From a virus (taxonomy: Duplodnaviria; Caudoviricetes): 54,415 nt of DNA. Numbering within the stretch: position 1 is the first letter of the stretch; each line of letters starts with the position of its first letter. Location of the stretch: the IMG/VR virus record IMGVR_UViG_3300037153_000425, positions 1 through 54,415 of that record; one strand, 5' to 3'. The position numbers and the translations under genes were made by a program. The notes under the pieces were generated by a model that did not search any database, was not told the origin of the DNA, and worked only from the letters and a program-made list of their open reading frames with translations. Of the stretch, positions 1 to 45,497 are shown piece after piece.

Positions 1-653
1 GGCAGAAAATCCGTGACCTCGCGTTGAATCGCGCGGGCAACCGCGCGCTCGACGCCGACGCCGCGGATTTCCTCGCGCAACACCTCTTCGAGCTCTACAC
101 GCTCGCCGACTGGCCGTTTCTCTACGTATCGGCGCCGCTGGTGTTGACGGGCCCGACGGTCGACTTGCCCGCGGATTTCATGACGGCGCAGGACGACCAC
201 GCCTTCCAGATCGTCGCCATCGACGGCGGGGCGCAAAGCGAGTGCTTTGCCGTCGAGGTCTCGCCCGAGGAATTGACCGCGATGGCGGCGCCGACGTCGC
301 ACGGCGTGCCGCAATATTGGGCGGTGTCGCGGAGCGATACCAGCGCGCGCGTGGCCCCGGATCCGACCGGGCGGCGGATCGACGTCGTGCTCCGCTACCG
401 ACGTCTCCCGCCCGAGCCGCTCCCGGCGGTCGAGCCGACGGACATTCCCGTGTTCCCGTACCACAATTACCTCGTGCAGGCGGTCTATGTGTTTGCGCTC
501 GAGCACGAGCGGGACGCGCGCGCACAAGCCGAGGCGGCCAATCGGGACACGTTGCTCGCGATGATTCGCCGCGGCGCCGCACCGCTCCGCTCGCAACGCG
601 CGGATATTCCGCTCGACCCGCTCATCTTCGGGCGGCCGTTCCGGGGCGACTAG
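1..653 (+). CDS. Head-tail adaptor / tail tubular protein A-like (5'-truncated)
   Basis: Full-length homologue at 37934-38617; lies after the capsid cluster and before the nozzle. Confidence 0.6.
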   Translation, partial: QKIRDLALNRAGNRALDADAADFLAQHLFELYTLADWPFLYVSAPLVLTGPTVDLPADFMTAQDDHAFQIVAIDGGAQSECFAVEVSPEELTAMAAPTSHGVPQYWAVSRSDTSARVAPDPTGRRIDVVLRYRRLPPEPLPAVEPTDIPVFPYHNYLVQAVYVFALEHERDARAQAEAANRDTLLAMIRRGAAPLRSQRADIPLDPLIFGRPFRGD

Positions 654-2672
654 ATGCCCGGCGCCCCCGACCGCGAGCTCCCGATTCCCGTCCGGCGCTT
701 CCAGGGCACCATGCTCGCCATGGATCCTGCCTTTGTGCCGCTCGGGTGGCTCGCGCGGTGCGAGAATTGGGTGCCGGATTTGACGCTTGTCTTGAGCAAG
801 CGCCGCGGGAGTGCGCCGTGGCAACGGTTGCCCCAACCCGGGCGGGTCGATCCGCTCTACTATTGCAGTGGCAGCGACGGCACGCGCTACCTCTACTGCG
901 TCGTCAACGATCAGCTTTACGTGTCGGTGAATGACGCGCCCATCGTGCCGGTCACCAACGGCGCCTTTGCCGCCGGCCCGGTTGAGGACCTCCGCTACGG
1001 GATCGCGGTCGTCGGCGATACGCTCTACGTCGGCAACGACGTCGACCCGATGAAGCAAGTGCCGCTCGGCGGCGATGCGGTCGACCTGGTGCCGCTGGCA
1101 CTCCTCGACGATACGGGCCAGGTGGCGACGGCGATTCCCGACGAGCTCGCGCGGGTGCTCGCCGGCACCTACAGCTATCGCTGGGCGACCTATCACGGGC
1201 CGACGCAACGGTGGACGAAGGTGGGGCCCGTGCGTACCGTGACCACGGCCGGGTCGGGGCGGCAACGGCTCGGGTTTCAGGCCCCCACGGTGGCGCTTGC
1301 GGCGGGCGAGCTCTACCACCTCTTCCTCGCCGGCGTCGACCAGGAGATCGAGGGCGCGCACGACCAGACCCCGGTCGGCCTCCCGGCATCGACCGGCGCT
1401 GACCAGTTTGCCTTGTGGGATGACCCCGCCGTGGAGTCGGCCACCGTACCGATTCCGTCGACGGTCGTCCGGCGCGGCGCGCACTTGATTGCGCACCGCG
1501 GGCGCCTCTGGGGGGCCGGCGGGCTCGACGAGACGGCGCGGCGCGTGTGGGCGACCAACGTCCTCGTGCCCGGCCTCGAGCAATCGCTCTTCGAGCAAGG
1601 GCTCTTTTTCCCGGCTGGGGCCGTGACGCCCGACTTGGGCGGCCCGGTGACGGCGCTCGCGGTCGCGACCTTGTCCTCGACGAATCGGAGCCCGACGTCC
1701 CCGCTCGCGCTCATGACCGAAACGAGCACGTGGCTCTATTTCGGCGACCCGGTCGATGATCCCGGCGCGACGCTTGTGCAAATCTCCGACGAGATTGGCT
1801 GCCCGGGCGACCGCACCGTGGCCTCGACGCCGCTCGGCATTCTCTTTTGCGGCAAGCGGAGCGTGTATCTCTTGACGCCGCAGCAAGCCGAGCCAAAAGA
1901 CGTCGGCTGGCCGATCGAGCCGGCGATCCGCGCAGTCCCGGTGCCCGAGCGGGCAAACTGCTGGGCGATCTATCACCGCGGCTTCTACAAGCTGGCCCTC
2001 GTGCCGGCGGGTGGTGTCACCCCGACCGAGGAATGGTGGCTCGACCTCCGCCACGGCCTCGGCGATCCGCCGAATTGGTGGGGACCGCATACGACGCCGG
2101 GCTACAGCGCCGCTGCGCGGGCGACGAATCATCCGGCCGAGGAGGACCGGGCGTGGGCGGCGCAAGACAGCTCGGTGGCCTTTTTCGTGCTCTTGGATCA
2201 AGCCGACCGCTACATGGATCCGGTCGGGCCGCGGACGGGCGGGCAGTGGAACGTGGCGCATTGGAACGGCGACGAGTGGGCGCAGGAGAGTGCGGTGCCG
2301 ATTGTCTCACGGATCATCACCGCGGACCTGGACGGCGGCGCCCCCTTGACGCCGAAGATTGCGAAGCGCGCACGCATCGTCGCCCACGTCTTCGAGACGA
2401 CGTCCCTCGGCATCACCGTCACGGCGGATCATAGTTACGGCGTCGCGGGCACGCTCCGCGTGCCGATTGCGCTCGGCGACGTGTGGGATACGGCCGACTG
2501 GGATACGGCCTCGTGGGCGATGCAGCAGTGGATCCTGAGCGAGTTCGAGTGTCCGGTCCCCGAGCCCCGCGGGCGGCTCTTTTCCGCCGTCTTGACGCAC
2601 GTCGACCCGAACCCGTGCGATCTCCGCGATTTCGAGCTCCGCGTGCAACCGTCCAGCCGCGAGACGCAGTAG
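654..2672 (+). CDS. Tail nozzle / tubular protein B-like (672 aa)
   Basis: Size, beta-propeller-like W/D-rich sequence, GC..R.V....G motif, position after adaptor. Confidence 0.7.
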   Translation: MPGAPDRELPIPVRRFQGTMLAMDPAFVPLGWLARCENWVPDLTLVLSKRRGSAPWQRLPQPGRVDPLYYCSGSDGTRYLYCVVNDQLYVSVNDAPIVPVTNGAFAAGPVEDLRYGIAVVGDTLYVGNDVDPMKQVPLGGDAVDLVPLALLDDTGQVATAIPDELARVLAGTYSYRWATYHGPTQRWTKVGPVRTVTTAGSGRQRLGFQAPTVALAAGELYHLFLAGVDQEIEGAHDQTPVGLPASTGADQFALWDDPAVESATVPIPSTVVRRGAHLIAHRGRLWGAGGLDETARRVWATNVLVPGLEQSLFEQGLFFPAGAVTPDLGGPVTALAVATLSSTNRSPTSPLALMTETSTWLYFGDPVDDPGATLVQISDEIGCPGDRTVASTPLGILFCGKRSVYLLTPQQAEPKDVGWPIEPAIRAVPVPERANCWAIYHRGFYKLALVPAGGVTPTEEWWLDLRHGLGDPPNWWGPHTTPGYSAAARATNHPAEEDRAWAAQDSSVAFFVLLDQADRYMDPVGPRTGGQWNVAHWNGDEWAQESAVPIVSRIITADLDGGAPLTPKIAKRARIVAHVFETTSLGITVTADHSYGVAGTLRVPIALGDVWDTADWDTASWAMQQWILSEFECPVPEPRGRLFSAVLTHVDPNPCDLRDFELRVQPSSRETQ

Positions 2673-2673
2673 C

Positions 2674-3705
2674 ATGGCGCAGATTCCCCGCCCGCCGAAA
2701 CAAGGGAACGTGATAACCTACGTCGCGAAGGTGGCGGCGGGCTATCCGCACATCCTGGCCGGCGAGGTCGATGCCGACCTGGATACGATCTACGGCGCGT
2801 GGAATAGCGGCGCCGATACCATCAACATTCGCGACGGGGCCGTCACGAGTGCCAAGCTGGCCGCCGATTCGGTCGGGCCGCGTGAGTTGCAGGATAGCGG
2901 CATCGGGACGACGAATCTCGCCGACGGGTCGGTCACGACGCCGAAACTGGCCGACCTGAACGTGACGACCGGCAAGCTCGCCGACGGCGCCGTGACGACG
3001 GCCAAGCTGCCGGATGGCACGGTGACGGACCCGAAGATCGTGAGTGTCGCGTGGGCGAAGGTGACGGGCGCCCCCACCACGCTACCGCCGAGTGGCCCGG
3101 CGGGCGGCGATCTCGCCGGCTCGAGCTATCCCAATCCCATCATTGCGTCGGGCGTCGTGACGGCGGCCAAGCTCGCCCCGGGGACGCTCACGGGCGCGAA
3201 CCTCTCGGCGGGCAGCATCGGCGCCCGCGAGATTGCCGACGGCAGTATCGGCGTCGCCGAGCTCGCCGATGCCGCCGTGTCGCGCGCGAAACTCGCGCCG
3301 GGCGTGCTCCCCGGCGCGTGGGTGTCCGTCCCGATCACCAACTTCACGACGAGCACCGTCGGCGGGTGGATCCGTGTTGCGACGCTCCCGGCACTGACGA
3401 CGCGCGGCGCGAATCCCGTCTTTCTCTTTGCCAATCACGGGCTCGGCGTCGCCGTCGGCGCGGGGCCCGGCAACGTGCTGCTGCGCTGGATCCGTGACGG
3501 CACGCACCTCTGCAACACCGCGTGGGGTGCGGGGGGCGGGACGAATCTCGTCGCGCCGTTGCCGTCGCTCCCGTGGATGGACGTCGTGCCGACCGCAGGG
3601 AGCTACGTCTACGCGCTCGAGGTGCAGCTCGGGCCCGGCGTGTCGACGGTGTATTTCGTCGCGACCAACACGGGCTGCGGCTTGACGGCGTTCGAGCTCG
3701 GATGA
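2674..3705 (+). CDS. Tail fibre-like protein 1
   Basis: DADLDTIY N-terminal anchor, repeated (D)G.VT..KLA motifs, variable C-terminus. Confidence 0.65.
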   Translation: MAQIPRPPKQGNVITYVAKVAAGYPHILAGEVDADLDTIYGAWNSGADTINIRDGAVTSAKLAADSVGPRELQDSGIGTTNLADGSVTTPKLADLNVTTGKLADGAVTTAKLPDGTVTDPKIVSVAWAKVTGAPTTLPPSGPAGGDLAGSSYPNPIIASGVVTAAKLAPGTLTGANLSAGSIGAREIADGSIGVAELADAAVSRAKLAPGVLPGAWVSVPITNFTTSTVGGWIRVATLPALTTRGANPVFLFANHGLGVAVGAGPGNVLLRWIRDGTHLCNTAWGAGGGTNLVAPLPSLPWMDVVPTAGSYVYALEVQLGPGVSTVYFVATNTGCGLTAFELG

Positions 3706-3719
3706 CCGGGGAGTAGCGC

Positions 3720-4886
3720 ATGGCGACGCAACGGCCACTCAAGGAAGGCAGCGTCCGCACCTACCAGGAAAAGGTGGCGCTCGGCTTCCCCGATATCCTC
3801 GCGAGCGAGATGGACGCCGACCTGGATACGATCTACGCGGCGTGGAATGGCGGCGTGGCCACGGCGAATTTGAATGACGCCTCGGTGACGGAGGCGAAGC
3901 TCGCGCCCGATGCGCATTTGTGGACGGCCGCGACGGGCGTGCTGAAACCCGTCAATGCGACCATGCCGCCGACGCTCGCCGTCTCGACCGGCGACAATCT
4001 CGTCTGGGGCACGCGCACGGCCAAAGCGCGCTTGGCGGCGCATCCGACGACGCCGGCGGCCTACTGGTATTTCAACCGGAATTTCGCCGGCACGCTCGAC
4101 GACGCCACGATTGCGTCGTGGGTCGCCGATTTTGACAGCGACGTCTTTCGCATCGGGCGGGCGGCGCCGGGCGTCACGAGCATGGCAACGCTGTTGCTTC
4201 TCGACGCCACCGGCACCGCGCAATTCGGCGTGCGAGCGAATGTCGCACCCGCCACGACCTATGCCGAATTTGCCGGCAATCCGACGTTGTCGGGCGGCTA
4301 CGATAGCGCGCAACCGACCGTGCTCGCGCGCTGTAACTACGGCGGCGATGCGTTCGAGGTCTGGCGGCGGGCGCCCAGCGGCGGCGCGTGGACCTCGCCA
4401 CTCGTCGTGCGAGGCAGCGACGGCAAGACGGTGTGCACGCTCGCCGATGGCTCGATCGCGCGGGGCATGATTGGCGTCGGGCAATCGGTGCGCGCGCTGG
4501 CCGATTTCCCGGTTGACCCGACGTGGACCTTGCCATCCAAGAATGCGTGGAACGTCTTTACGACGGGCGTCTATGCGGCCGTCGGCGGCTTCGCGTTGCT
4601 CCTCGTCGACCCGGCATGGATGTACAGCGCCGCAAGCAGCACCGGGACGGGCGCCTGGGTGCAAGTGCTGATTGACGGCACGACGGTCGTCTATCAGCGG
4701 CTCTACCGCGCGGCGGCGAGCATGGCGGTCGTGCCGATGCCCGGCTTCGCCTGCTTTCCGTCGCTGCCCGCGGGCTCGCGCACGATTCAAGTGCGGGTCT
4801 TCTGTGAGACGAATGCGAGCGTGCAAATGAGCGCGGACGGCGCGCAAGTGAACGCCGGGACGATTCGGTTGATTGAATTTTGTTGA
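3720..4886 (+). CDS. Tail fibre-like protein 2
   Basis: Paralogous N-terminus to 2674 (RP.K.G.V.TY..KVA.G.P.ILA.E.DADLDTIY.AWN.G); beta-rich C-terminus. Confidence 0.65.
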   Translation: MATQRPLKEGSVRTYQEKVALGFPDILASEMDADLDTIYAAWNGGVATANLNDASVTEAKLAPDAHLWTAATGVLKPVNATMPPTLAVSTGDNLVWGTRTAKARLAAHPTTPAAYWYFNRNFAGTLDDATIASWVADFDSDVFRIGRAAPGVTSMATLLLLDATGTAQFGVRANVAPATTYAEFAGNPTLSGGYDSAQPTVLARCNYGGDAFEVWRRAPSGGAWTSPLVVRGSDGKTVCTLADGSIARGMIGVGQSVRALADFPVDPTWTLPSKNAWNVFTTGVYAAVGGFALLLVDPAWMYSAASSTGTGAWVQVLIDGTTVVYQRLYRAAASMAVVPMPGFACFPSLPAGSRTIQVRVFCETNASVQMSADGAQVNAGTIRLIEFC

Positions 4887-4897
4887 GGCGGGGCACC

Positions 4898-5125
4898 ATG
4901 GCTGACACCTACACCTGTGACCATTGCGGCGCGACGGCGGAGAGTTTGGATGATTGGCAGTTTGTCGTCGTCGGCTTCTTTCACGTCGCGGGGGGCCAGC
5001 CGCCTCCGGGCGGCAAGACACTCGACGCCACCCTCCCCGACCTCGTCTTTGACACGCAGGCGTGTCTGGACGCGTGGCGTGCGGAGGTCCACTTGACCGC
5101 GCCGAGGGGGGCGACCGATGCCTGA
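4898..5125 (+). CDS. Small CxxC protein, variant-1 specific
   Basis: MADTYTCDHCG; GAGG upstream; fills the operon gap; absent from variant 2. Confidence 0.55.
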   Translation: MADTYTCDHCGATAESLDDWQFVVVGFFHVAGGQPPPGGKTLDATLPDLVFDTQACLDAWRAEVHLTAPRGATDA

Positions 5126-5294
5126 GCGGCCGGCGAGCGTGCCGCGGGCGGTCCTCGAGGAGCGGCGCGCGGCGCTCGGCGCCGAGCTCTTGGCGGCCAT
5201 GCGGCACGTCGAGCAGCTCCGCGGCGCCGTGGCGCTCCTCGACGAGCTCCTCGCGCCCGATGCCGCCGGGCGCCCGCTCGAGGTCGTCGCATGA
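5118..5294 (+). CDS. Small coiled-coil protein (58 aa)
   Basis: ATGA-coupled to GNAT 1; same-length homologue at 42290-42466. Confidence 0.6.
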   Translation: MPERPASVPRAVLEERRAALGAELLAAMRHVEQLRGAVALLDELLAPDAAGRPLEVVA

Positions 5295-5914
5295 TCCGAC
5301 CCGCCGTGTTTGCCGACGTGCCGGGGCTCCGCCGCCTCTACGCGGCGCTCGTCGCCGAGCTCGCGGCCACGCGCCCGCTGCCGTATCCGACGCACGGGGC
5401 CGACGACCTCGACACCTTCACGCTCTTGACGGCGCGGCGGATCGAGCAGGACCCGACGCTGCTCTTGTACGTCGCGACCGACGACGCGACGGGCGAGCTG
5501 GTCGGGTTTCTCGGCGGCGAGGTGTCCGAGCGGGCGCTCGGCGAGCCGCACGTCTTTGGCAATGCGCACTGGCTCTATGTCGCGCCGGCAGCCCGCGGCC
5601 GCGGTGTCGCCCGCGCGCTCGTCGAGCGGGGGTGTCAGGACCTGGACGCGCTCGGTGTGACGCATGTCGAGCTCGCCGCCAGCGCCGGCGACCCGCAATG
5701 GATGGCCCGGGGCTGGGTGCCCTACGTCGTCCACCATGCGTTGCCGCTGGCTGCGGTCCGCGCCGGCGTCGTCGAGCGCCCCGCCGTCGATCCCACACCG
5801 ACGGCCCCGACGGCGCCGGCCCCTGCACCCGCGGCCACGCCGGCACCTCGCAAGCGGCGCCGGCGGCGGCGGACGGCGCCGCGGCCGCGGCTCCTCGCCG
5901 GGGGCCGGGCATGA
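5291..5914 (+). CDS. GNAT acyltransferase 1
   Basis: MIRPA...D, LVGF, LYV.P.ARGRGVA motif A. Confidence 0.85.
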   Translation: MIRPAVFADVPGLRRLYAALVAELAATRPLPYPTHGADDLDTFTLLTARRIEQDPTLLLYVATDDATGELVGFLGGEVSERALGEPHVFGNAHWLYVAPAARGRGVARALVERGCQDLDALGVTHVELAASAGDPQWMARGWVPYVVHHALPLAAVRAGVVERPAVDPTPTAPTAPAPAPAATPAPRKRRRRRRTAPRPRLLAGGRA

Positions 5915-6423
5915 GTCACCTGGTCCGCACCGCCGAGCCGGGCGATCGCCCGGCGCTCGAGGGCTTGCTCGCCGCCCTCATGCGCGAACACCAGGGCACG
6001 TTTCCCGCCGCCTATCCCCACTTCGCTCCCGTCGAGGACGCCGCGAATCTCCTGACGCTCTATGCGCCGCGGCTGGCTCAGGATCCAAGTCTGGTCGCCG
6101 TGCTGGCCGTCGACCGCGCGCCCGTGGGGTTGCTCGTGGGGGAGGTCGTCGCGCGGCCGGTCGGTCGGCCGGCGACCGTCGGCTTTGTCGAGTGGTTCTA
6201 CGTCGTGCCCGAGGCCCGCGGGCAAGGCATCGGGCGCGACCTCGTGCGGGCCGCCTTGGCGCTCGTGCGGCCGTACGGCGTGACGCACATCGAGATTGCG
6301 AGCGTGCCCGGCGACCGGCAATGGCACCGGCGGGGCTGGCGGGAGACGTCGCGCCACTACGTCGCCCCCGTGGAGCAGGTGACCGCCTGGGCCGCCCTCG
6401 AGGAGGCTCCCGATGCACGATAG
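5911..6423 (+). CDS. GNAT acyltransferase 2
   Basis: VRTAEPGD, PVG, FYVVPEARGQGIG motif A; ATGA overlap with GNAT 1. Confidence 0.85.
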   Translation: MSHLVRTAEPGDRPALEGLLAALMREHQGTFPAAYPHFAPVEDAANLLTLYAPRLAQDPSLVAVLAVDRAPVGLLVGEVVARPVGRPATVGFVEWFYVVPEARGQGIGRDLVRAALALVRPYGVTHIEIASVPGDRQWHRRGWRETSRHYVAPVEQVTAWAALEEAPDAR

Positions 6424-7846
6424 CCGCCGCTACCATCGCACGCGGCCACCGACCTTCACGCGCGCCTACGGCTCGCAAGCCTCGACGCCCGTCACGCGCT
6501 CACCCTTTGGCGGCTTGCCCTACCAGGTCGCCGGGCGTGTCAACCGCCAGCAGCTCTCGCCGCTCTTGATGGGGCTCGGGCTCGGCGTCGGCCCGAAAGC
6601 GCAACAGTTGCAGCAGCAAATCATGAGCGGGCAAGCGCAAGGGCCGCTCGCGTCGGCGATTCGCGGGATCCAGCAATTTGCGCCCGGCGTGATTGGCGGC
6701 GCGCAGGGCATCGGCCAGCAAATGTCGGCGCAAGGCGCCGAGGCCAACCGGCAACTGCAAGCCTCGATTGCCGCCGCGCAGGCGGGGATGCCGCAGTATC
6801 AAAGCGCCGTCAATCAAGGGCTCGCGGCGACGCAAGGCGCGCTCGGCAGTGCGCAGGATCTCTACGGGCAAGCCGCGGCCATGCTCCCCGGGCTCCAGCA
6901 AGTGGCGCAGCAAGGCACGCAGGGCGCGCAATCGGCGCTCGGCCAGGCGCAAAACTACATGACGGGGCCGGCGTTGACGGGCGCGCAGAATGCGTTGAAC
7001 CTCGCGCAGCAGTACACGCAAGGGCCGCAGCTCCAAGGGGCGCAGAGCCAGCTCGCGCGTGCGCAGGAGCTCCTCCGCGGCGGCGCGGCCGAAGGCGGCG
7101 CCGCACAAGCGGTCGACCTGGCGCAGCGCTACGCGCAGCAAGCGGCCTCCCCGATCGCCAACGAGGATCTCTATCAGGCGGCCTCGCGGCGGGTGATGCA
7201 GCAAATCAACCCCGGGCTTGCCGCACGCGGGCTCGAGGCGGGCGGCGCCGGCGCGCAGATGATGACCGATGCGCAACGCGACCTCGCCATGCAGTTTGCG
7301 CAGCAGCAGGCCGCGCAGCGGCAAGCGACGGTGCAAGGCTTGACGGGCGCCACGCAAGGGCTCGGCGGGCTCCAAGCGCAGGCACAACAGAACCTCGGCG
7401 CCGCGGCGTCGGGGCTCGGGAATCTTCAGCAGCAAGGCTTGCAGGGCTACGGGCAGGCCGCAACCAATCTTGGGAACTTGACGCAACAGGGCTTGTCAGG
7501 GTTGACGGCGGCGAGCCAGGGCGCGCAGCAAGCCGCGCAGAATCAAGCCGCCCTCGGGCAATCCATGATCCCGTATTTGCAGGCGATTCAGCAAGGCGCG
7601 CAAGGCGTCGGGGGCGCCGCGCAGCAAGGCGCCGGGATGTTGATGGCGGGGCCGCAGCTCGCCGGGCAGCAAGCGGAGGCCGTCAATCAGCTCGGGCAAA
7701 CCCTCATGCAGCAATACAACATGCCGATGCAGGCATCCGGCAATCTGCTGAACTTGCTTACGGCCGGGCTGTCGCCGGGCTTGCAGATGACGCAGGCCAC
7801 GGCGCCGGTGACGGCCAACCAGAGCAAGGGCTACAACATCATCTGA
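6413..7846 (+). CDS. Gln/Ala/Gly-rich DNA ejection (pilot) protein with basic leader
   Basis: Low-complexity helical Q/A/G repeats, GAGGAGG RBS, position after GNATs. Confidence 0.65.
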   Translation: MHDSRRYHRTRPPTFTRAYGSQASTPVTRSPFGGLPYQVAGRVNRQQLSPLLMGLGLGVGPKAQQLQQQIMSGQAQGPLASAIRGIQQFAPGVIGGAQGIGQQMSAQGAEANRQLQASIAAAQAGMPQYQSAVNQGLAATQGALGSAQDLYGQAAAMLPGLQQVAQQGTQGAQSALGQAQNYMTGPALTGAQNALNLAQQYTQGPQLQGAQSQLARAQELLRGGAAEGGAAQAVDLAQRYAQQAASPIANEDLYQAASRRVMQQINPGLAARGLEAGGAGAQMMTDAQRDLAMQFAQQQAAQRQATVQGLTGATQGLGGLQAQAQQNLGAAASGLGNLQQQGLQGYGQAATNLGNLTQQGLSGLTAASQGAQQAAQNQAALGQSMIPYLQAIQQGAQGVGGAAQQGAGMLMAGPQLAGQQAEAVNQLGQTLMQQYNMPMQASGNLLNLLTAGLSPGLQMTQATAPVTANQSKGYNII

Positions 7847-7854
7847 GGGCGGGC

Positions 7855-8448
7855 ATGACGCACGACTCCCGACGCTACCATCGCCCGCGGCGGCCGACGT
7901 TTGCCCGGGCCTACGGCATGCTCGGCGCGATCGGCAGCGGCCTCGAGAGCGCCGGCAGCGCCGTCGGGAGCGCGGCGGGCACGGTCGGCAGCGGCCTCGA
8001 GAGCGCTGCGAGCTCGGCGCTTGGCGGGGCCGGGCAATCCGCGCTCGGCGGGCTCTCGAGCATCGGACAAGGGTTGCAATCGCTCTTTGGCTCGGGCGGC
8101 GGCGAGGCCGGGCACCTCGCGTCACTCGGGCAAGCCGTGCCCGCCGGCGTCGAGCTCGCCGGTCCCAGCTCGACGTTTACGGGCCCCGGGTTTTTGAGCA
8201 GCGTCATGCAGGGCTTTACGCAGGGCCCGCAATCGTTGGCGAATCCGAGCGCGGGCACGTCGCTCGGCACGGGTGTCGGCCAGCTCTTGAGCACGCTCGA
8301 TCAGATGAACGCCGGGCGGAGCGGCGGCATGTCGCTGCAACCCATTGTCGGCGGCATCACGGGCCAAGCGCAGGGGCCGCGCGTCATTCCCGGCGGCGCG
8401 GCGCAACCGGGCACGGGCCCGATCATGAAGCTCCTCGGGATTCTCTGA
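7855..8448 (+). CDS. Gly/Ser-rich ejection protein with the same basic leader
   Basis: Glycine-zipper-like segments; leader shared with 6413. Confidence 0.6.
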   Translation: MTHDSRRYHRPRRPTFARAYGMLGAIGSGLESAGSAVGSAAGTVGSGLESAASSALGGAGQSALGGLSSIGQGLQSLFGSGGGEAGHLASLGQAVPAGVELAGPSSTFTGPGFLSSVMQGFTQGPQSLANPSAGTSLGTGVGQLLSTLDQMNAGRSGGMSLQPIVGGITGQAQGPRVIPGGAAQPGTGPIMKLLGIL

Positions 8449-8449
8449 C

Positions 8450-10972
8450 GTGGACTCGCCGGTTTTCAATACGATCAAGAACGTGGCCGGCTACGGCGTC
8501 GGCACGCTCGCGGCGCTCGATACGATCAAGTCGGGCGGCCTCGGATCGTACTTGATGAACCGGCAACGGCTCATGAGCGACCCGGGCTTTCGCGCGACGC
8601 TCGCCGGCTCGCCGTTCGCGGCGGGCATCTTTGGCGTGTCGGGCGAGACGGGGCCCGCGCCTGCGGCACCGGGCGCGCTCCCGGCGACGGGCGCACCGGG
8701 CGGCCTGGCGCAACCCGCCGACATGGTCGGCCCGCCCGCACCCGGCGTCCAGGTCGCCGCGCCCGCACAAGCGGCGCCCGGCCAGCTCCCGGCGCCGTCG
8801 GCTGTCAACGTACCCGGCTATCTGCCCGGGACGCCGCGCGCGTGGATGCCGAACTTGCCGCCCTACGATCCCGAGGAGGCGCTCAAGCAGCAAGCCCTCG
8901 CCTCGCAGCAAGTGGCGATTGGCGCGGGGAATCCGCTCCAAGCCGGCATCGCCAAGATGCAAGCGGGTATCATGCCGACCGAAGGCGAAACCAAGGCCGT
9001 GCTCGGGCAAGCGGCGGGGATTCAACAGGCCGCCGGCCCCGGCTCGACCGTCGGGGTCAAGCTGCCCGGGATGACGGTACAGATCGGCTCGCCGTACAAC
9101 TTCTCGGCGGTCGGCTCCGACGAGTATCCGAGCTATCAAGTCGCCGCCGCCGCCGCCGCGGCACGCAACGCGCAGCTCCCGCCGGGGAGCGCCGGCTGGA
9201 CGGTCGTGCCCTCGGGCCGCGGCACCTTCTTGATTGCGCCGCCGCCGACGCGCGAGCAAGAGTTCCCGACGACACCCCCGGCGCCCGCGAAGAGTGGTGA
9301 AATGCCAGGCGCCCCGCCGGCGCCCGTGATGCGGGGCGGGACACCGCCGCCGGGCGCACCCGGCGGGACGCCGGGTCCGACGGCGTCCGCAATGCCCATG
9401 GCGCCGACACTATCGGCGCCGGTGATTTATCCCGCCCCGAAAGGTTTTGTCTTTCACCATTCGGGCGGCTCGACACTTGCCGGATTGACGACGACGTTAG
9501 CTGATCGCGGTCTCGGCTCGGAATATGTCATGGACCGTGATGGGACGATCTACAGCTATGCGGGTCAGGGGTCACCGCATATCCGACCCAATGACCAATA
9601 TGGCGGCATTGCGCCGGGGCTCACGAACACGAATGCACTCGGGATGGAGGTGGTTGCCAAGGATAACAACGACGTTACGCCGGCACAGATTGCATCTGCA
9701 CAGAAGTTTATCGCGGACAATTATCCCAATACGCCCATCTACGGACACGGCGAAGTAAATCCCGGGCACAAGCAGGCGACCGAGGGCATGGCGATTGTCA
9801 GCGCCATTCGGAACGATCGGGGTATGGCGGTCGCTTCCACGCCGACGACGCGCCCGAGTGTCTCTTTGGGTGGCGGCATTGCATACGCGGCGGCGCCCCC
9901 GCCCGGCGCCACGGTCACGCCGCCACCGCCACCCGCTCCCGCCGCGCCGAGCTTCGATCCCGACGCCACGGTGCCGCACGTCCTCGTGCCCGCGCCGGCC
10001 CCTGCCGAGGCGACGGTCGGCTATCCTCCGGCCGCGCCGGGCCCGGCGGCGGGAGTGATTGTGCCGCAACGGATTCCGACGCTCAGGACGCCGGCGCCAC
10101 CTCCACTCCCGGGCGCGACCGCGCCGCCAGGCGCCGCCGTGCTCCCGGGGACGAATGTCGATCCCGCCACGGGGCTCCCACTCACGGGCCGGACGTATGA
10201 ATCCAAGACCGGGAGCGAGACGTTTACCGCGCCGCCGCGGGGCGACGCCCGGACGCAGATGCTCATGCGCAAGTACGGCATTACCGACTGGGCGCTCGCG
10301 AGCGCGAAACAAATCGACGACTACATGGCCGAGGATCGGGCGTTGAAGATTCAGGACGACTTCGACAAGGCGGCAATTGCGCGCACGCAACGCGCCCCGA
10401 GCGCCGAGGAAGAACGGATCTCGAACCGTTACTTCATGATGAAGCGCAACTATGACGATTTTCTTACGCAGTATCCCAACCCGGAGGATCGGGCGAAGTT
10501 CCTCGGACTCGCGCGCGCGCCGTGGGAAACGCTGCTTGAACGAGTCGGGTGGCGGAATGCGACGGCGATTCGGGATTTCCGCAATGCGTTTGCGTCGTTC
10601 TCACTCGAAAGCCTCACCGACGACAGGGGCAAAGCCCAGCCGGGATTCGAGGGGATTGCACAGACGGCGCCGAGCGCCTCCGACTCGGCCCCGGTCTTTG
10701 AGAGTAACCTGCAGCATTTCGGCGACCTGTTGAACGATCAGATCACCCTCGACACCAATACCGCCGCGCTTCCGGTCGGCGCCCGGACGCCCGCGGTGAT
10801 GCAAAGCTTGCTGGATCAGATGCGGGTCAACCGCGACGCGGCCCGGCAGGCGGAGTCTCAGCCGCCCCCCGAGGCGCCCGCCGCACCGCCGCCGCCCCCC
10901 GCCGCCACCGCGGCACCGCCCCCGCCGGCCGCGGCGACTGCGCAGCCGTGGTCGCCGAACTGGGTGCACTGA
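8450..10972 (+). CDS. Large ejection protein with N-acetylmuramoyl-L-alanine amidase domain
   Basis: FVFHHSGG, YVMDRDGTIY, NALGMEV, IYGHGEV motifs at about 9430-9825; Pro-rich linkers. Confidence 0.75.
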   Translation: MDSPVFNTIKNVAGYGVGTLAALDTIKSGGLGSYLMNRQRLMSDPGFRATLAGSPFAAGIFGVSGETGPAPAAPGALPATGAPGGLAQPADMVGPPAPGVQVAAPAQAAPGQLPAPSAVNVPGYLPGTPRAWMPNLPPYDPEEALKQQALASQQVAIGAGNPLQAGIAKMQAGIMPTEGETKAVLGQAAGIQQAAGPGSTVGVKLPGMTVQIGSPYNFSAVGSDEYPSYQVAAAAAAARNAQLPPGSAGWTVVPSGRGTFLIAPPPTREQEFPTTPPAPAKSGEMPGAPPAPVMRGGTPPPGAPGGTPGPTASAMPMAPTLSAPVIYPAPKGFVFHHSGGSTLAGLTTTLADRGLGSEYVMDRDGTIYSYAGQGSPHIRPNDQYGGIAPGLTNTNALGMEVVAKDNNDVTPAQIASAQKFIADNYPNTPIYGHGEVNPGHKQATEGMAIVSAIRNDRGMAVASTPTTRPSVSLGGGIAYAAAPPPGATVTPPPPPAPAAPSFDPDATVPHVLVPAPAPAEATVGYPPAAPGPAAGVIVPQRIPTLRTPAPPPLPGATAPPGAAVLPGTNVDPATGLPLTGRTYESKTGSETFTAPPRGDARTQMLMRKYGITDWALASAKQIDDYMAEDRALKIQDDFDKAAIARTQRAPSAEEERISNRYFMMKRNYDDFLTQYPNPEDRAKFLGLARAPWETLLERVGWRNATAIRDFRNAFASFSLESLTDDRGKAQPGFEGIAQTAPSASDSAPVFESNLQHFGDLLNDQITLDTNTAALPVGARTPAVMQSLLDQMRVNRDAARQAESQPPPEAPAAPPPPPAATAAPPPPAAATAQPWSPNWVH

Positions 10973-10975
10973 GCG

Positions 10976-12142
10976 ATGCCCGATCAGGCGCTTTTCGCGT
11001 ATCGCGTGCAGCTCCCCGACGGGAGCGAGACGGTGCGGACGGGCGGGGCCGACCGGCCGCCGACGCATGGCGAACTCGCCGATTACGCCGCGAACCAGGG
11101 CGAGCGCTACCTCGGGCCGGTGGCGATGTCGCCCAACATTCCGACCGGGAGCCCGCCCCCCGAGGCGGCACCCACGCCATCGCCCGCCGCGCCCACCGTG
11201 CCACCACCGGCCCCGCCCGAGGCGGTGGCCTCGCCGAGCACGCTCTCGCATACGCTCTGGCCCGAGCGCTCGATCGCGAGCCAGGTGCCGAGCATCGTTG
11301 GGGGTGTTGGCGGGGGTATGCTCGCGGGGGCGGGGATGGGCGCGCTCGGCGGCCCCTTGGCCCCGATCACGGTGCCCGTCGGGGCGATTATCGGGGGCGC
11401 GCTCGGCTCGGGTGGCCTCGAGTATCTCACGGCGAAATCGGAGCAAGAAGCGGGCATCCCGCCGTCCGAGGAGGGCACGCCGGCCGAGCGGGCGGTGCGG
11501 GCCGGGGTGCGTGGTGGCGTCGGCGAGACGGGCAGCCAGCTCGTGCAAGGGGGCGCGCAGGCCGTCAAGGCGCTCGCGCGTCCGGTCCTCAGCGCGGTCG
11601 AGCAAGTTGCCCCGACGATCACGCGCGAGCTGCCCGCCGAGGCCACGGCCGTGACGACGAAGGTCGGGCAGTTGATTCGCGACCCGGGGGCGCTCGCCAC
11701 CGCCCCGCTCGGGCCGCAGGGCCAGCGCACCATGCTCCCGGCATGGTGGCAATACCACACCGCCAACGGGGCCGACGCGGTCGTCAAGGCGTGGGATGCG
11801 CTCACGCCGGTCGGCCAATTGAACCTCGCCGGCCCGCAGGTCGACGCCATGGGCCGCATCGTCGATGCGCTGCGCCCGAGCGGCATGGGCATCGGCAGCC
11901 TCGCCAAGAGCGCCGGCTTACCGGCGACCCTGTCGCACTACGGGGTGATTTCCTACCCGACGGCGGTAGGGCTCACTGCGGCAACCAGACTCGGGCAGGA
12001 GTACGCGCCGCGCGCCTTGCTGTATCCGACCGCGCTCGATTGGATGTCGCGGCTCCCGCCAATCTCGCGAGTGGCGAGCCCGTGGGCCAGCGCCGCGACG
12101 AGCACGGTCGGGCAGATCGGGGCGCGGGAAGCGCTGCCCTAG
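10976..12142 (+). CDS. Ejection protein with glycine-zipper membrane segment
   Basis: GGVGGGMLAGAGMG...GAIIGGALG; last gene of the late operon. Confidence 0.6.
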   Translation: MPDQALFAYRVQLPDGSETVRTGGADRPPTHGELADYAANQGERYLGPVAMSPNIPTGSPPPEAAPTPSPAAPTVPPPAPPEAVASPSTLSHTLWPERSIASQVPSIVGGVGGGMLAGAGMGALGGPLAPITVPVGAIIGGALGSGGLEYLTAKSEQEAGIPPSEEGTPAERAVRAGVRGGVGETGSQLVQGGAQAVKALARPVLSAVEQVAPTITRELPAEATAVTTKVGQLIRDPGALATAPLGPQGQRTMLPAWWQYHTANGADAVVKAWDALTPVGQLNLAGPQVDAMGRIVDALRPSGMGIGSLAKSAGLPATLSHYGVISYPTAVGLTAATRLGQEYAPRALLYPTALDWMSRLPPISRVASPWASAATSTVGQIGAREALP

Positions 12143-12234
12143 CGGAGACGTCGCGGGAGGAACACGGCGAGCACGCGCACGAGGACCGTCGCCAGGAACG
12201 AGATGCTTACGAACTCGATGATCCAGGCCGTCAT
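12139..12234 (-). CDS. 31-aa hydrophobic peptide (MTAWIIEFVSISFLATVLVRVLAVFLPRRLR)
   Basis: Translated by hand; single TM plus basic tail; positional counterpart at 49225-49323; promoter upstream. Confidence 0.55.
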   Translation of the reverse strand: MTAWIIEFVSISFLATVLVRVLAVFLPRRLR

Positions 12235-12244
12235 AGCGTTACAG

Positions 12245-12274
12245 ACGATACGTGTCATGCCCGCGTGTCGGCAA
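12245..12274 (-). promoter_or_regulatory. Sigma70-type promoter TTGCCG-N18-TATCGT
   Basis: Conserved in both variants, about 10 nt upstream of the peptide ATG. Confidence 0.5.
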
Positions 12275-12315
12275 GCCCCGCAGGGGCCTTAGCGGGCTTC
12301 CAGCCGCGCGGCTCG

Positions 12316-13596: not shown

Positions 13597-13763
13597 GGCG
13601 CCGTCCCGTGCCGCGCTCGCCACGCGGCCACGCGACAGAGCGGCGAGCAATAGCGGGCGGTCGCCCGCACGGGTTTGAAGCGCACCCCACACCGGGCGCA
13701 CTGCTGTAACGCTATCGATGCCCGCCTACCCGTTACAGGGCCCGGGGTGGGCTTCCCGGTCAT
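13593..13763 (-). CDS. Small zinc-finger protein
   Basis: CARCG..F.P....ARYCS..CR; homologue at 50028-50228. Confidence 0.6.
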   Translation of the reverse strand: MTGKPTPGPVTGRRASIALQQCARCGVRFKPVRATARYCSPLCRVAAWRARHGTAP

Positions 13764-13990
13764 GCCGAGGTGCGCGCGGGCCGTGGTAGCGTTGCGAGGG
13801 CCCTTCTCGGGCCATCGTGGTGCGCGTCCGTGCCGCCGGTGCACCGCCGCAAGTGCACCTCGAGCGCGTCGCGCACCCAATCCTGCACCAGAACCTCCGT
13901 GGCGATGCACTCGAGTTTCAGCGCGCGGTGCACCCGTTTCGGGATGCGGGTCGCGAGCTGGACGCTATCCGCCGGAATGTCGTTCGCCAT
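13760..13990 (-). CDS. Ribbon-helix-helix DNA-binding protein
   Basis: VQLATRIP..VHRALK......V...V.DAL pattern. Confidence 0.7.
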   Translation of the reverse strand: MANDIPADSVQLATRIPKRVHRALKLECIATEVLVQDWVRDALEVHLRRCTGGTDAHHDGPRRALATLPRPARTSA

Positions 13991-15354: not shown

Positions 15355-15384
15355 GCTCCTCCCGCAGCGCCTCGAGGTCGTCCG

Positions 15385-42466: not shown

Positions 42467-43086
42467 TCCGCCCCGCCGTCTTCGCCGACGTGCCGGGGCT
42501 CCGCCGCCTCTACGCGGCGCTGGTCGCCGAGCTCGCGGCCACGCATGCCGTCTCGTACCCTGCGTACGGCGCGGACGACCTCGATAGCTTTACGCTCTTG
42601 CAGGCCCGGCGGCTGGTCGAGGATCCGACGTGGCTCACCTACGTGGCGACGGACGACGCGACGGGCGACGTGGTCGGGTTTCTCGGCGGCGAGGTCTCTG
42701 AGCGGGCCCTCGGCGAGCCGCGCGTGTTTGCGGCCGCGCATTGGCTCTATCTCGCACCGACGCATCGGGGCCGTGGCCTGGCCCGCGCGCTCGCCCTCCG
42801 CGGCGTGGAGGATCTGGCAGCGCTCGGCGTGACGCACGTTGAGGTCGCGGCGGTCACAGGCGACAGGCAATGGCACGCGCGCGGCTGGCTCCCCTATCTC
42901 GTGCACTACGCCTTGCCCCTCGCCGCGGTCCGCGCCGGCGTCGTCGAGCGCCCCGCCGTCGATCCCACACCGACGGCCCCGGCGGCGCCGGCCCCTGTCC
43001 CCGCCGTGCCGCGGGCGCCCCGGAAGCGCCGGCGGCGGCGGCGCCCCGCGCCCACGCCGCGGCTCATTGCCGGAGGCCGGGCATGA
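42463..43086 (+). CDS. GNAT acyltransferase 1 (variant 2)
   Basis: HRGRGLA motif A. Confidence 0.85.
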   Translation: MIRPAVFADVPGLRRLYAALVAELAATHAVSYPAYGADDLDSFTLLQARRLVEDPTWLTYVATDDATGDVVGFLGGEVSERALGEPRVFAAAHWLYLAPTHRGRGLARALALRGVEDLAALGVTHVEVAAVTGDRQWHARGWLPYLVHYALPLAAVRAGVVERPAVDPTPTAPAAPAPVPAVPRAPRKRRRRRRPAPTPRLIAGGRA

Positions 43087-43601
43087 GTCACATGATCCGC
43101 ACCGCCGAGCCGGGCGACCGCCAGGCGCTCGAGACGTTGCTCGCCGCCCTCATGCGCGAGCATCAAGCCGGCTTTCCCGCGGCCTATCCCCGCTTCCACC
43201 CCCTCGAGGCCGCCGCCTATCTCGCCGCGGGCTATGCCGCGCGGCTGTCGCAGGATCCCAGCCTCGTCGTCGTGCTGGCCGTCGACCGTGCGCCCGTGGG
43301 GTTGCTCGTGGGGGAAGTGCGCGCGCGTGCCGTCGGCCGGCCGGCGACGGTGTGTTTCGTCGAGTGGTTCTATGTCGAGCCGCCCGACCGGGGGCAAGGC
43401 ATCGGCCGGGAGCTCGTACGCGCGGGGGTGCGCATCCTCCACGCCTACGGCGTCACCCACATCGAGATTGCGAGCGTGCCCGGCGACCGACAATGGCAGC
43501 GGCGGGGCTGGCGGGAAACGGCGCGCCACTATGTCGCCCCGGTCGAGCACGTCACCGCCTGGGTCGGCCTCGAGGAGGATCCCCATGCCCCCGCACGATA
43601 G
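43083..43601 (+). CDS. GNAT acyltransferase 2 (variant 2)
   Basis: DRGQGIG motif A. Confidence 0.85.
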   Translation: MSHMIRTAEPGDRQALETLLAALMREHQAGFPAAYPRFHPLEAAAYLAAGYAARLSQDPSLVVVLAVDRAPVGLLVGEVRARAVGRPATVCFVEWFYVEPPDRGQGIGRELVRAGVRILHAYGVTHIEIASVPGDRQWQRRGWRETARHYVAPVEHVTAWVGLEEDPHAPAR

Positions 43602-44913
43602 TCGCCGGTACCATCGCACGCGGCCGCCGACGTTTACCCGGGCGTACGGGCAACAAACGACGACGCCGGTCACGCGCTCGCCGTTTGGCGGCTTGCCGTA
43701 CCAAGTGGCCGGGCGCATCAATCGCCAGCAGCTCTCGCCGCTCTTGATGGGGCTCGGACTCGGCGTCGGGCCGAAAGCGCAAAAACTGCAGCAGCAAATC
43801 ATGAGCGGCCAAGCGCAGGGGCCGCTCGCGGCGGCGATTCGCGGCGTGCAGCAATTCGCGCCGGGCGTGATTGGCGGCGCGCAGGACATCGGGCAACAGA
43901 TGTCGCAGCAAGGCGCCGATGCGGTCAGACAGTTGCAGGCGTCGATTAGCGCGGCGCAGACGGCGATGCCGCAGTATCAGCAAGCCGTCAACCAAGGGCT
44001 CGCCGCCACGCAGGGCGCGCTCGGCGGCGCGCAGGATCTCTACGGGCAAGCGGCCGCGATGCTCCCCGGACTCCAGCAAACCGCGGCGCAAGGCACGCAA
44101 GGCGCGCAGCAAGCGTTAGGCGCCGCGCAGGGCTACCTGACCGGGCCGCAGATGCAGGCCGCGCAAGCGCAGCTCGCGCGCGCGCAAGGGCTCCTCGGCG
44201 GCGGGGCCGCGGAGGCCGGCGGCGCGCAAGCGCTCGACCTCGCGCAACGCTACGCGCAGCAAGCCGCGTCGCCGATTGCCAACGAGGACCTCTACCAGGC
44301 GGCCTCCCGGCGCGTGATGCAGCAGATTCAACCCGGGCTCGCCGCGCGCGGCTTGGAGGCCGGCGGCGCCGGCGCGCAGCTCTCGGCCGACACGCAACGC
44401 GATCTTGCGATGCAGTTTGCTGCGAATCAAGCGGCGCAGCGGCAAGCGGCCTTGCAGGGCTTGCAGGGCGCCGCGAGCGGGCTCGGCAATCTCCAGAGCC
44501 AGGCGCAGCAGAATGTCGGCGCCGCGGCCTCGGGGCTCGGCAACCTGCAAGCGCAGGGGTTGCAGGGCTTGCAGGCGGCGAGCCAGGGCGTGCAAGGCGC
44601 CGCGCAGAATCAAGCCGCCCTCGGGCAATCTATGATCCCGTATTTGCAGGCGATTCAGCAGGGCGCGCAGAATGTCGGGGGCGCCGCGCAGCAGGGCGCG
44701 GGGATGCTCATGGCGGGCCCCGAACTCGCCGGGCAGCAAGCGGCCGCCGTCAATCAGCTCGGGCAAACCCTCATGAATCAATACAACCTCCCCATGCAGG
44801 CATCCGGCAATCTCATGAACTTGCTCACCGCAGGCCTGTCGCCGGGCTTGCAGATGCTCGGCGCGACCGCGCCGACCACGGCCTCGTCGAGTAAGCAGTC
44901 GAACATCCTATGA
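43585..44913 (+). CDS. Gln-rich ejection protein (variant 2)
   Basis: Homologue of 6413 with repeat-unit indels. Confidence 0.65.
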   Translation: MPPHDSRRYHRTRPPTFTRAYGQQTTTPVTRSPFGGLPYQVAGRINRQQLSPLLMGLGLGVGPKAQKLQQQIMSGQAQGPLAAAIRGVQQFAPGVIGGAQDIGQQMSQQGADAVRQLQASISAAQTAMPQYQQAVNQGLAATQGALGGAQDLYGQAAAMLPGLQQTAAQGTQGAQQALGAAQGYLTGPQMQAAQAQLARAQGLLGGGAAEAGGAQALDLAQRYAQQAASPIANEDLYQAASRRVMQQIQPGLAARGLEAGGAGAQLSADTQRDLAMQFAANQAAQRQAALQGLQGAASGLGNLQSQAQQNVGAAASGLGNLQAQGLQGLQAASQGVQGAAQNQAALGQSMIPYLQAIQQGAQNVGGAAQQGAGMLMAGPELAGQQAAAVNQLGQTLMNQYNLPMQASGNLMNLLTAGLSPGLQMLGATAPTTASSSKQSNIL

Positions 44914-45497
44914 CGGACGACTCGCGGCGCTATCATCGCATGCGGCCACCGCGGTTGGCGCGCGGCTACGGCATGCTCGGCGCGCTCGGGAGCGGGATTG
45001 CCGACGCCGCGGGCGCCGTCGGCAGCGGGCTCGAGAGTGCGGCGAGCTCGGCGCTTGGCGGGGCCGGGAGCACGGCCCTCGGCGGGCTCGAGAGTGTCGG
45101 GCACGGGCTCCAATCGCTCTTTACCTCGGGCGGCGGCGAGGCCGGCAACCTCGCTGCGCTCGGGCAAGCGGTACCCCAAGGCGTCGAGCTCGCGGGCCCG
45201 AGCTCGACCTTTGCCGGCCCCGGGTTTCTCGGGAGCGTGATGCAGGGCTTTACGCACGGGCCGGCGCAACTCGCGAATCCGAGCGCGGGCACGTCGCTTG
45301 GGACGGGTGTCGGGCAGCTCTTGAGCACGCTCGACCAGCTGAATGCGGGTCGGCAAGGCGGGATGTCCTTGCAACCGATTGTCGGGGGGATCACCGGGGC
45401 GCTGGGGCAGCGCCCGAAACTGACCAACACCGCACCGCCCCCGATGGGGCCGGGCCCGATCATGGGGATGCTGGGGCAGCTCTTTAAGGGCTTCTAG
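44910..45497 (+). CDS. Gly/Ser-rich ejection protein (variant 2)
   Basis: Homologue of 7855. Confidence 0.6.
   Translation: MTDDSRRYHRMRPPRLARGYGMLGALGSGIADAAGAVGSGLESAASSALGGAGSTALGGLESVGHGLQSLFTSGGGEAGNLAALGQAVPQGVELAGPSSTFAGPGFLGSVMQGFTHGPAQLANPSAGTSLGTGVGQLLSTLDQLNAGRQGGMSLQPIVGGITGALGQRPKLTNTAPPPMGPGPIMGMLGQLFKGF

Follow-up and report, generated by a model that had tools for sequence, protein, structure and literature searches.

Two neighbouring and otherwise unrelated proteins of an uncultured phage, here termed LP1 and LP2, begin with the same Arg-rich leader peptide of about 20 residues. They are encoded in the IMG/VR virus record IMGVR_UViG_3300037153_000425 (Duplodnaviria; Caudoviricetes), a virus contig of 54,415 bases with a G+C content of ~70%, and the whole record is called the window below. 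Comparison with related contigs shows that the leader is translated, that it is under purifying selection at the protein level and that it behaves as a modular unit, restricted to N-termini and private to one lineage of uncultured, high-GC phages. The explanation favoured here, although tentatively, is that the leader may be a portable N-terminal tag for handling or packaging, similar to a capsid-targeting sequence (CTS) or a pro-peptide and recognised by one phage-specific partner. Two tandem genes of the GNAT family (GNAT1 and GNAT2) precede LP1, and their possible connection with the leader is weighed alongside other readings.

Leader sequence and boundary

The window consists of two diverged copies of one gene layout, ~38 kb apart. 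In a self-comparison, positions 1-18791 match 37965-54415 piecewise at 69-97% identity, and 5255-9287 match 42427-46328 at 80.7% identity. The two copies could derive from tandem related prophages or from an assembly that joined two variants. LP1, LP2 and the versions of both in the second copy (starting at 43585 and 44910) have the N-terminal sequence DSRRYHRxRxPxxxR[AG]YG in common, and all four N-termini read as claimed in a preliminary description of this DNA:

6413..7846, plus strand: LP1, 477 amino acids, Gln/Ala/Gly-rich, mostly helical by prediction
6413..6472, plus strand: leader on LP1, MHDSRRYHRTRPPTFTRAYG, with a GAGGAGG ribosome-binding site upstream
7855..8448, plus strand: LP2, 197 amino acids, Gly/Ser/Ala-rich, comparable in size to T7 gp14 and P22 gp7
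7855..7917, plus strand: leader on LP2, MTHDSRRYHRPRRPTFARAYG
43585..44913, plus strand: second copy of LP1, 442 amino acids
43585-43650, plus strand: leader on the second copy of LP1
44910..45497, plus strand: second copy of LP2, 195 amino acids
44910-44972, plus strand: leader on the second copy of LP2

When LP1 and LP2 are compared by BLASTP, only one segment is significant, in which residues 2-20 of LP1 align with residues 3-21 of LP2 and 16 of 19 positions are identical (E 4e-10); the remaining segments all have E >= 0.12. The similarity therefore stops at YG, the abrupt boundary that had also been described. A six-frame scan of the window for RRYH found the four leader sites and one unrelated, off-frame match at 2811. 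The back-translated pattern GAYWSNCGNCGNTAYCAYCGNNNNCGNNNNCC has four matches in the window, at 6419, 7864, 43597 and 44919, and none in any of 100 dinucleotide-preserving shuffles. Among 35 leader N-termini, D3, R5, R6, Y7, H8, R9, P13 and R17 are invariant. The leader contains 5-7 Arg plus His per 20 residues and no Lys at all, and is the main source of the net positive charge of LP1 (+8) and LP2 (+3).

The presence of S-R-R near the N-terminus, followed in LP2 by a mildly hydrophobic Gly/Ala/Ser stretch, is reminiscent of twin-arginine (Tat) signals, which combine the consensus S/T-R-R-x-F-L-K with a subsequent hydrophobic region and AxA site. Nevertheless, a Tat or other export signal is scarcely credible here: the hydrophobic positions of the consensus (F-L) are occupied by H and R, LP1 has no hydrophobic region beside the motif, no AxA site is seen, and proteins destined for the interior of the virion must remain cytoplasmic.

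Translation of the leader

The leader DNA of LP1 and LP2 in the first copy is identical at 42/54 positions, the codon differences being synonymous in 6 cases and non-synonymous in 3, and the window leader pairs as a whole share 42/54 and 36/54 nucleotides. Among 38 distinct DNA versions of the leader, from the window and related contigs, the invariant D, R, Y and H are each encoded by 2-4 synonymous codons, Ser is encoded by AGC, AGT, TCC and TCG, and pairwise codon differences are synonymous in 4623 cases versus non-synonymous in 2711. Because the invariant residues turn over synonymous codons, these codon comparisons show purifying selection on the leader at the protein level. Codons ending in A or T are frequent in the leader (GAT 32/38, CAT 27/38, TTT 15/24). 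Third codon positions in the genome are ~85-90% G+C, so such codons are unusual, and they fit a true 5' gene end.

Shine-Dalgarno matches (dG <= -6) are present ahead of the leader ATG in 19/20 LP1 genes and 7/18 LP2 genes; ahead of the codon that follows YG, there is a match in 0/18 LP2 genes, compared with 12% of random positions. LP2 starts often overlap the LP1 stop, and in 10/19 LP2 entries the reading frame opens just 5-8 codons ahead of the motif. True starts downstream of the motif, for example at a Met after YG, had been reckoned with as a difficulty for the preliminary description; the ribosome-binding-site and frame evidence places the starts upstream, and together with the codon data shows that the leader peptide is translated.

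The opposite reading, that the peptide is not made because the true starts lie downstream or because the repeat is a DNA or RNA element, can point to public gene calls. In public record P0060, LP1 of the second copy of this very phage is begun at a GTG 40 codons inside (43705 onward), and in nine LP2 database entries the Met that follows YG was taken as the start. Such internal-start calls mean that the leader is under-annotated in databases. The reading itself is already contradicted by the synonymous turnover at invariant residues, by the limited nucleotide identity of the window pairs, by the ribosome-binding sites at the leader ATG and by the late opening of the LP2 frames, and its probability is close to nil.

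Distribution and modularity

A DNA-pattern search of IMG/VR found 22 stretches, 20 of which have the motif in frame right after Met; 15 stretches contain two motif copies 1.2-1.3 kb apart. Among 1.84 billion representative proteins, a profile built from the 35 leader N-termini had 12 matches at E <= 0.001, all of them LP1-like or LP2-like and all placed at residue 1-10, bar one open reading frame call over-extended upstream. In 596 Gb of sequence from 185,579 species genomes, the leader DNA pattern had 59 matches, all off-frame or junk and none of them a real leader. These searches show that, within the databases covered, the leader is restricted to N-termini and private to one lineage of uncultured phages.

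Profile searches identified 143 LP1 relatives (120 listed), all from metagenomes or metagenome-assembled genomes (MAGs), and 99 LP2 relatives. A strict leader expression is matched by 86/120 of the listed LP1 proteins, and the rest are mostly one-residue variants or truncated gene calls. Loci of type A (17 contigs and both window copies) have the leader on both LP1 and LP2. At every type-B locus the leader, matched by a looser expression, is on LP1 alone; seven of these loci, L087, L090, L092, L098, L102, L109 and L117, have 1.8 to 6 kb downstream of LP1. Type-B LP2 begins MAF[LV]AP..., MAW.AP... or similar in 8/8 contigs in which the N-terminus was read, and this N-terminus aligns with the residue right after YG in type A. 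The residue following YG in aligned leader-bearing LP2 is Met in 17/20, the remaining three having L, I or A. Among the 99 LP2 relatives, 66 have the leader, ~19 are truly leaderless, 9 are the internal-Met calls, ~4 are fragments and 1 is a variant.

The form of the LP1 leader also differs between the groups, being DSRRYHRxRPPTF[TA]RAYG[SQ]Q in type A and D[ST]RR[YL]HRxxxPER[LV]R[YHF][YF]GK[NQ] in type B. A third, degenerate form (...SSRALHD...RVR[AE]FGKN) is found in contig L108 and in P0117-like proteins, and distant LP1 forms that lack Y-G have RFQAG, RGISAG, RAFNFG or RANVG. In the deeply diverged L013 group, the leader is on LP1 in L013, P0014, P0015 and P0016. By contrast, LP1 of contig L119 starts MGFSES..., just past the end of its relatives' leader and with its own ribosome-binding site, and no leader was found in any frame. 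A quick IQ-TREE analysis of LP1, from which the N-terminal 30 residues had been trimmed, placed the type-B forms whose LP2 is leaderless in a single clade (SH-aLRT 95) inside the leader-bearing forms. Such a placement favours a single loss of the LP2 leader in type B, on a quick tree search with an uncertain root on a long outgroup branch. Taken across these contigs, the presence or absence of the leader at a fixed boundary shows it to be a modular unit.

LP1 and LP2 as putative ejection proteins

From their position, size and composition, LP1 and LP2 appear to be internal virion (ejection-type) proteins. The block that holds them and the GNAT genes is called an internal-virion or ejection module because an amidase-bearing protein of 840 amino acids follows. 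Neither LP1 nor LP2 has a match in Pfam, PHROGs or NCBIfam. In the ESM Atlas, the named cluster nearest to LP1 is P22_gp7 at 0.91, which is a lead only.

In 111/120 LP1 homologues, the C-terminus (7826-7846 in the window) carries [SG]-K-[GQ]-x-x-[IVA]-[ILV], although Lys accounts for just 0.8% of residues. The near-invariant Lys, which lies six residues from the LP1 C-terminus, may be a site of modification or contact. P0015, an L013-type LP1 of 403 amino acids with the leader, has a C-terminal Peptidase_S74 intramolecular chaperone domain (E 6.4e-17). Elsewhere, such domains are characteristic of trimeric fibres and spikes, which hints that LP1 may form trimers.

The leader as a putative tag

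In the favoured explanation, the first two internal-virion proteins of the lineage would carry the tag, and one common phage-specific partner would recognise it during handling or procapsid loading. The tag would not be part of the mature ejection machine. If it is trimmed off later, the enzyme might be a host peptidase, as no phage protease came to light among the module proteins searched. Candidate partners are the co-translated GNAT pair, which lies in the position of internal virion protein A (IVP-A), the portal and an acidic scaffold-like protein encoded at 34995-35765. That the tag is read by one partner is suggested by the presence of the same peptide on unrelated proteins, by its sharp boundary, by its presence or absence in sister lineages and by its invariant polar and aromatic residues; the invariant non-basic D, S, Y and H fit a specific protein pocket better than plain charge. 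We infer the assembly role of the tag, and any cleavage, from these comparisons.

By analogy, the leader belongs with known kinds of N-terminal peptide, namely the T4 CTS and the P22 gp7 leader, although no description of a leader shared by two podovirus ejection-type proteins was found in the open-access literature searched. According to passages of PMC9026906, the CTS of T4 (on IPI, IPII, IPIII and Alt) is a short, modular and transferable N-terminal peptide on divergent ejected internal proteins, and the propeptides of IPII and IPIII are identical although the mature proteins diverge; they direct these proteins to the prohead core and are then cut off. The leader described here is likewise a short, modular and transferable N-terminal peptide on divergent, putatively internal proteins. 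It differs in being ~20 residues long and Arg-rich, whereas the CTS is ~10 residues of unrelated sequence and is cut by the prohead protease gp21 (same passages). In addition, T4 is a myovirus, while the phage described here is podovirus-like and its tag has a putative targeting role.

The leader of P22 gp7 likewise comprises ~20 N-terminal residues of an ejection protein encoded directly downstream of an acetyltransferase-like gene, gene 14. The P22 record BK000583 annotates 20 residues cleaved by host OpdA, in line with the loss of such a peptide mentioned in the preliminary description. As far as the relevant sections of PMC8402733 and PMC4992974 describe it, the gp7 leader is removed before assembly, and ~60% of the burst is left after its deletion. 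This dispensability may have a parallel here in the natural leaderless forms of LP2 and LP1. In P22 the leader is on gp7 only, whereas here one leader is common to two unrelated proteins, and no sequence similarity was found between it and the gp7 leader. Moreover, unlike the dispensable gp7 leader, it is nearly invariant in its core across the lineage, which argues for a needed function.

Several points weigh against a packaging tag. The leaderless LP2 of type B and LP1 of L119 presumably still enter the virion, which means that the tag is not needed in every case. For P22 gp7, an excerpt of PMC8402733 gives the procapsid-binding part as residues 21-154 and not the leader. No prohead protease was found among the module proteins of the second copy (10 searched in PHROGs and 9 in Pfam, with small and minus-strand open reading frames excluded). 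The ejection identity of LP1 and LP2 is itself drawn from position and composition only: hhalign comparisons of LP1 and LP2 with P22 gp7, and of LP1 with P22 gp20, were non-significant, with the single-sequence templates used, and the 672-amino-acid protein encoded upstream has no match to a tail-tube family.

A different function for such an extension would be that of a safety pro-peptide, in which a basic leader blocks insertion of a hydrophobic N-terminus into the membrane of the producing cell until packaging or trimming. The LP2 leader does directly precede a Gly/Ala/Leu-rich segment, which is also the leaderless N-terminus of type B (MAFLAPALSAIG...), and T7 gp14 likewise starts with a hydrophobic segment. 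However, the first hydrophobic stretch of LP1 lies ~30 residues past the leader, a charge-based block needs no invariant DSRRYHR, and type-B LP2 manages without any leader, so this function is very unlikely.

The GNAT pair

The GNAT genes of both copies are as follows:

5291..5914, plus strand: GNAT1, 207 amino acids, with a GNAT fold, a Pro/Ala-rich linker, a poly-Arg run and a C-terminal PRPxL[VL]AGGRA; Acetyltransf_1, 38.0 bits
5911..6423, plus strand: GNAT2, 170 amino acids, a GNAT1 paralogue; Acetyltransf_1, 38.9 bits
42463..43086, plus strand: second copy of GNAT1
43083..43601, plus strand: second copy of GNAT2

The GNAT1 stop and GNAT2 start overlap by ATGA, and the GNAT2 stop overlaps the LP1 start by 11 nt. 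GNAT1 and GNAT2 are 42% identical over 160 residues (E 3e-30). Both are above the curated cut-off of Pfam Acetyltransf_1 (PF00583), 20.7 bits, as are the single GNATs of L013 and L119 (40.5 and 34.8 bits). Motif A, which binds the pyrophosphate of coenzyme A (CoA), has the form Q/R-x-x-G-x-G/A. It reads R102-G-R-G105-V-A107 in GNAT1 and R103-G-Q-G106-I-G108 in GNAT2, and its positions are invariant or >=90% conserved among 17 GNAT1 and 18 GNAT2 sequences; in the 17-sequence alignment, R102, G105 and A107 of GNAT1 are invariant and the basic tail is conserved. The two coupled GNATs with intact motif A that had been described are thus borne out by the Pfam scores and by the conservation of R-x-x-G-x-[AG]. 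NCBIfam gave sub-threshold generic matches only, for example AAC(6') and MshD, and a sequence search of the PDB gave only weak generic GNAT matches for both proteins (E 0.0016-0.0052). An AlphaFold2 (AF2) model of GNAT2 from 18 sequences has a mean predicted local distance difference test score (pLDDT) of 62.5, which is too low to support fold comparisons. By family assignment, the two proteins are ordinary, tandem-duplicated Acetyltransf_1 members with predicted acyl transfer.

Upstream of the pair are the 672-amino-acid protein and the fibre genes, and downstream are LP1, LP2 and the amidase-bearing protein; these flanking proteins are assigned by position only. A small acetyltransferase-fold gene also heads the block of internal virion proteins in other podoviruses, as IVP-A (T7 gp13, P22 gp14 and the phiRIO-1 group). 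In the portions of Hardies et al. 2016 (PMC4819975) drawn on here, HHpred matches to acetyltransferases are described for T7 IVP-A and for its syntenic counterparts in other podoviruses, which agrees with the acetyltransferase-like gene said earlier to precede ejection genes, and T7 IVP-A is needed for morphogenesis and not kept in the virion. The GNATs described here are unlike IVP-A in being two tandem paralogues with an intact CoA motif and DNA-binding-type GNAT1 tails, and the fibre genes between the 672-amino-acid protein and the GNATs are also unlike the arrangement in IVP-A systems. No match was found between either GNAT and PF11090 or PF11039, which we take to be the T7 gp13 and P22 gp14 families, respectively, even at E <= 10. 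Alignment of GNAT2 by hhalign gave probabilities of 0.14% for T7 gp13 and 0.64% for P22 gp14, single-sequence templates of low sensitivity being used. Judged on gene order and these searches, the GNATs appear to occupy the IVP-A slot, but their sequences do not place them in the T7 gp13 or P22 gp14 family.

In GNAT1 the fold is followed by a Pro/Ala-rich linker and a basic tail, located at 5783-5914 and 42955-43086 in the window. The type-A tail is RKRRRRRR...PRPKLVAGGRA. Among the type-B tails (21 loci, L084-L117), 11 end in ...TGRPRGRPRKV and 10 have poly-Arg/Lys runs. The TGRPRGRPRKV tail is AT-hook-like (Pfam AT_hook E 0.048 in L109, below cut-off), and GNAT1 of L117 (L117:4608-5504) has a full RNA_pol_A_CTD domain (PF03118, E 1.8e-17, residues 201-257) before its AT-hook-like tail. 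Since the tails are DNA-binding-type modules, GNAT1 probably works tethered to DNA.

A putatively DNA-tethered enzyme in the same operon, with polybasic or AT-hook-like tails and in one case RNA_pol_A_CTD, is also compatible with the leader being a retained arm that binds nucleic acid or other polyanions, either contacting packaged DNA or gathering the proteins with GNAT1. The 5-7 Arg plus His of the leader and its large contribution to the charge of LP1 and LP2 would suit this function. Yet D, S, Y and H are as invariant as Arg and the order of residues is fixed, and leaderless orthologues exist. The tail of GNAT1, presumably an electrostatic binder, drifts freely in sequence, whereas the leader core stays fixed, which suggests that a protein pocket, rather than charge alone, recognises the leader. 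A DNA-binding arm is accordingly rather unlikely.

The leader and the GNATs

Both GNATs are directly upstream of LP1, in the order GNAT1-GNAT2-LP1, in 38/40 related contigs; one of the other two is cut at the contig end, and L013 has a single GNAT. Co-occurrence of leader and tandem GNATs, as anticipated in the preliminary description, therefore stands as gene order, but because the contigs belong to a single lineage, the figure reflects synteny and not independent co-occurrence, and several contigs uncouple the two. Type-B contigs have two GNATs and the leader on one protein, L013 has one GNAT, one leader protein and no LP2, and in L119 an intact GNAT directly precedes a leaderless LP1. In L108, the CoA motif is intact in both GNATs, but the leader core has diverged to SSRALHD. 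The type-B and L119 cases mean that neither the number nor the presence of GNATs tracks the leader, and the comparative data argue against an obligate GNAT-leader link. An arrangement in which each GNAT serves one leader protein is ruled out, as GNAT and leader counts do not covary.

Some link between GNAT and LP1 is nevertheless suggested by the conserved stop/start overlap, which is 14 nt in the diverged L013 and L119, and by protein P0057. In P0057 (579 amino acids, one ENA contig), GNAT2 is joined in frame to LP1, and the leader is located at residue 180; the fusion may be natural or may result from a frameshift error in the contig. An AF2 model of P0057 (31 rows) has a mean pLDDT of 53.2; the leader region is coil with values below ~50, and the LP1 part has long helices at low confidence. 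Complex prediction for GNAT1(1-168), GNAT2 and the leader scored 0.01 and 0.00 against a mark of 0.32, without controls, and carries no weight either way on binding.

It had been proposed that cleavage near Y-G exposes an N-terminus that the GNATs acylate. With no lysine in the leader and Y-G lost in distant LP1 forms, this specific model has nothing behind it at present. In a broader form, the leader would be the recognition element of the GNAT pair, which would acylate the tagged proteins either at a new N-terminus after cleavage or at a lysine, such as the near-invariant one at the LP1 C-terminus, and so prime membrane insertion. Toxin-activating acyltransferases act on RTX toxins in this way. 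The kept CoA motif in both GNATs, the overlap with LP1 in the window, L013 and L119, the P0057 fusion, the constant position upstream of LP1, the pocket suggested by the invariant non-basic residues and the conservation of the LP1 Lys motif in a Lys-poor protein are all compatible with it. Against these, two GNATs accompany a single leader in type B, L119 keeps an intact GNAT without a leader, the L108 leader has diverged beside intact GNAT motifs, the leader offers no Lys and no constant Y-G, co-occurrence is confined to one lineage, and the fusion could be a sequencing frameshift. Nothing on acylation of ejection proteins, or on the enzymology of T7 gp13, was found in the open-access literature searched beyond Hardies 2016. 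Overall, the broader model is unlikely.

A bolder combination of the tag with the GNATs would make the leader a programmable cargo label of short-tailed phages. A GNAT1/GNAT2 heterodimer, one subunit of which would be tethered to DNA by an AT-hook or alpha-CTD-type (RNA polymerase alpha C-terminal domain) tail, would read the label, load the ejection proteins onto the DNA or procapsid core and acylate them, for example at the C-terminal Lys of LP1. This scheme is speculative and distinctly unlikely.

Gene neighbourhood and host

Codon-position G+C indicates a plus-strand structural block, to which the GNAT/LP region belongs, followed by minus-strand genes. The remaining features are:

8450..10972, plus strand: 840-amino-acid protein with a central N-acetylmuramoyl-L-alanine amidase domain (Amidase_2, E 1.3e-07, residues 329-437; phrog_1493, endolysin)
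33042-33989: Laminin_G_3 (concanavalin-like lectin) protein, 315 amino acids, E 3.5e-15, between the portal-like and scaffold-like genes
34995-35765: acidic scaffold-like protein, member of the structural block
35778-37109: major head protein, phrog_1357, E 1.6e-41
29926-32475: portal-like protein, 849 amino acids, member of the structural block
Structural block, upstream of the GNAT/LP region: 672-amino-acid protein and fibre proteins

No tRNA genes were found in the window. Gene order, and the lack of a long-tail family among the proteins searched, suggest that the phage is podovirus-like. A search of the capsid protein against a phage database found distant relatives only (<33% identity). 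The counterpart of the amidase protein in the second copy (45497-48037) has a different central segment with no Pfam match and a weak match to phrog_873. This large protein and a 734-amino-acid protein of L119 (L119:5832-8036) have a common ...GPFARSQPGY... stretch. The difference between the copies in the large protein after LP2 looks like the swap of a cell-wall-cutting cassette.

With regard to the host, LP1 patterns matched 599 stretches in the 185,579 species genomes, with 0 relatives among them, and the genome matches of the leader DNA pattern gave 0 tblastn matches to any of 11 module proteins. All relatives are metagenomic in origin, and the MAG labels disagree, P0114 being assigned to Steroidobacteraceae and P0215 to Gaiellales. 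The lineage carrying the leader is made up of uncultured, high-GC, podovirus-like soil phages.

Implications

A sharply bounded tag that has been gained or removed naturally on two ejection proteins provides a direct experimental handle. How podovirus ejection proteins are chosen and loaded, and what the preceding acetyltransferase-like gene does, thereby become questions accessible to experiment. The tails of GNAT1 suggest a class of enzymes that acts on or beside DNA. If a GNAT-read cargo tag proved true, it would give the T7 gp13/P22 gp14 class of assembly factors a biochemical role; and if the tag alone were enough to direct packaging, podoviruses would have an equivalent of the T4 CTS, which is used to load foreign proteins into capsids.

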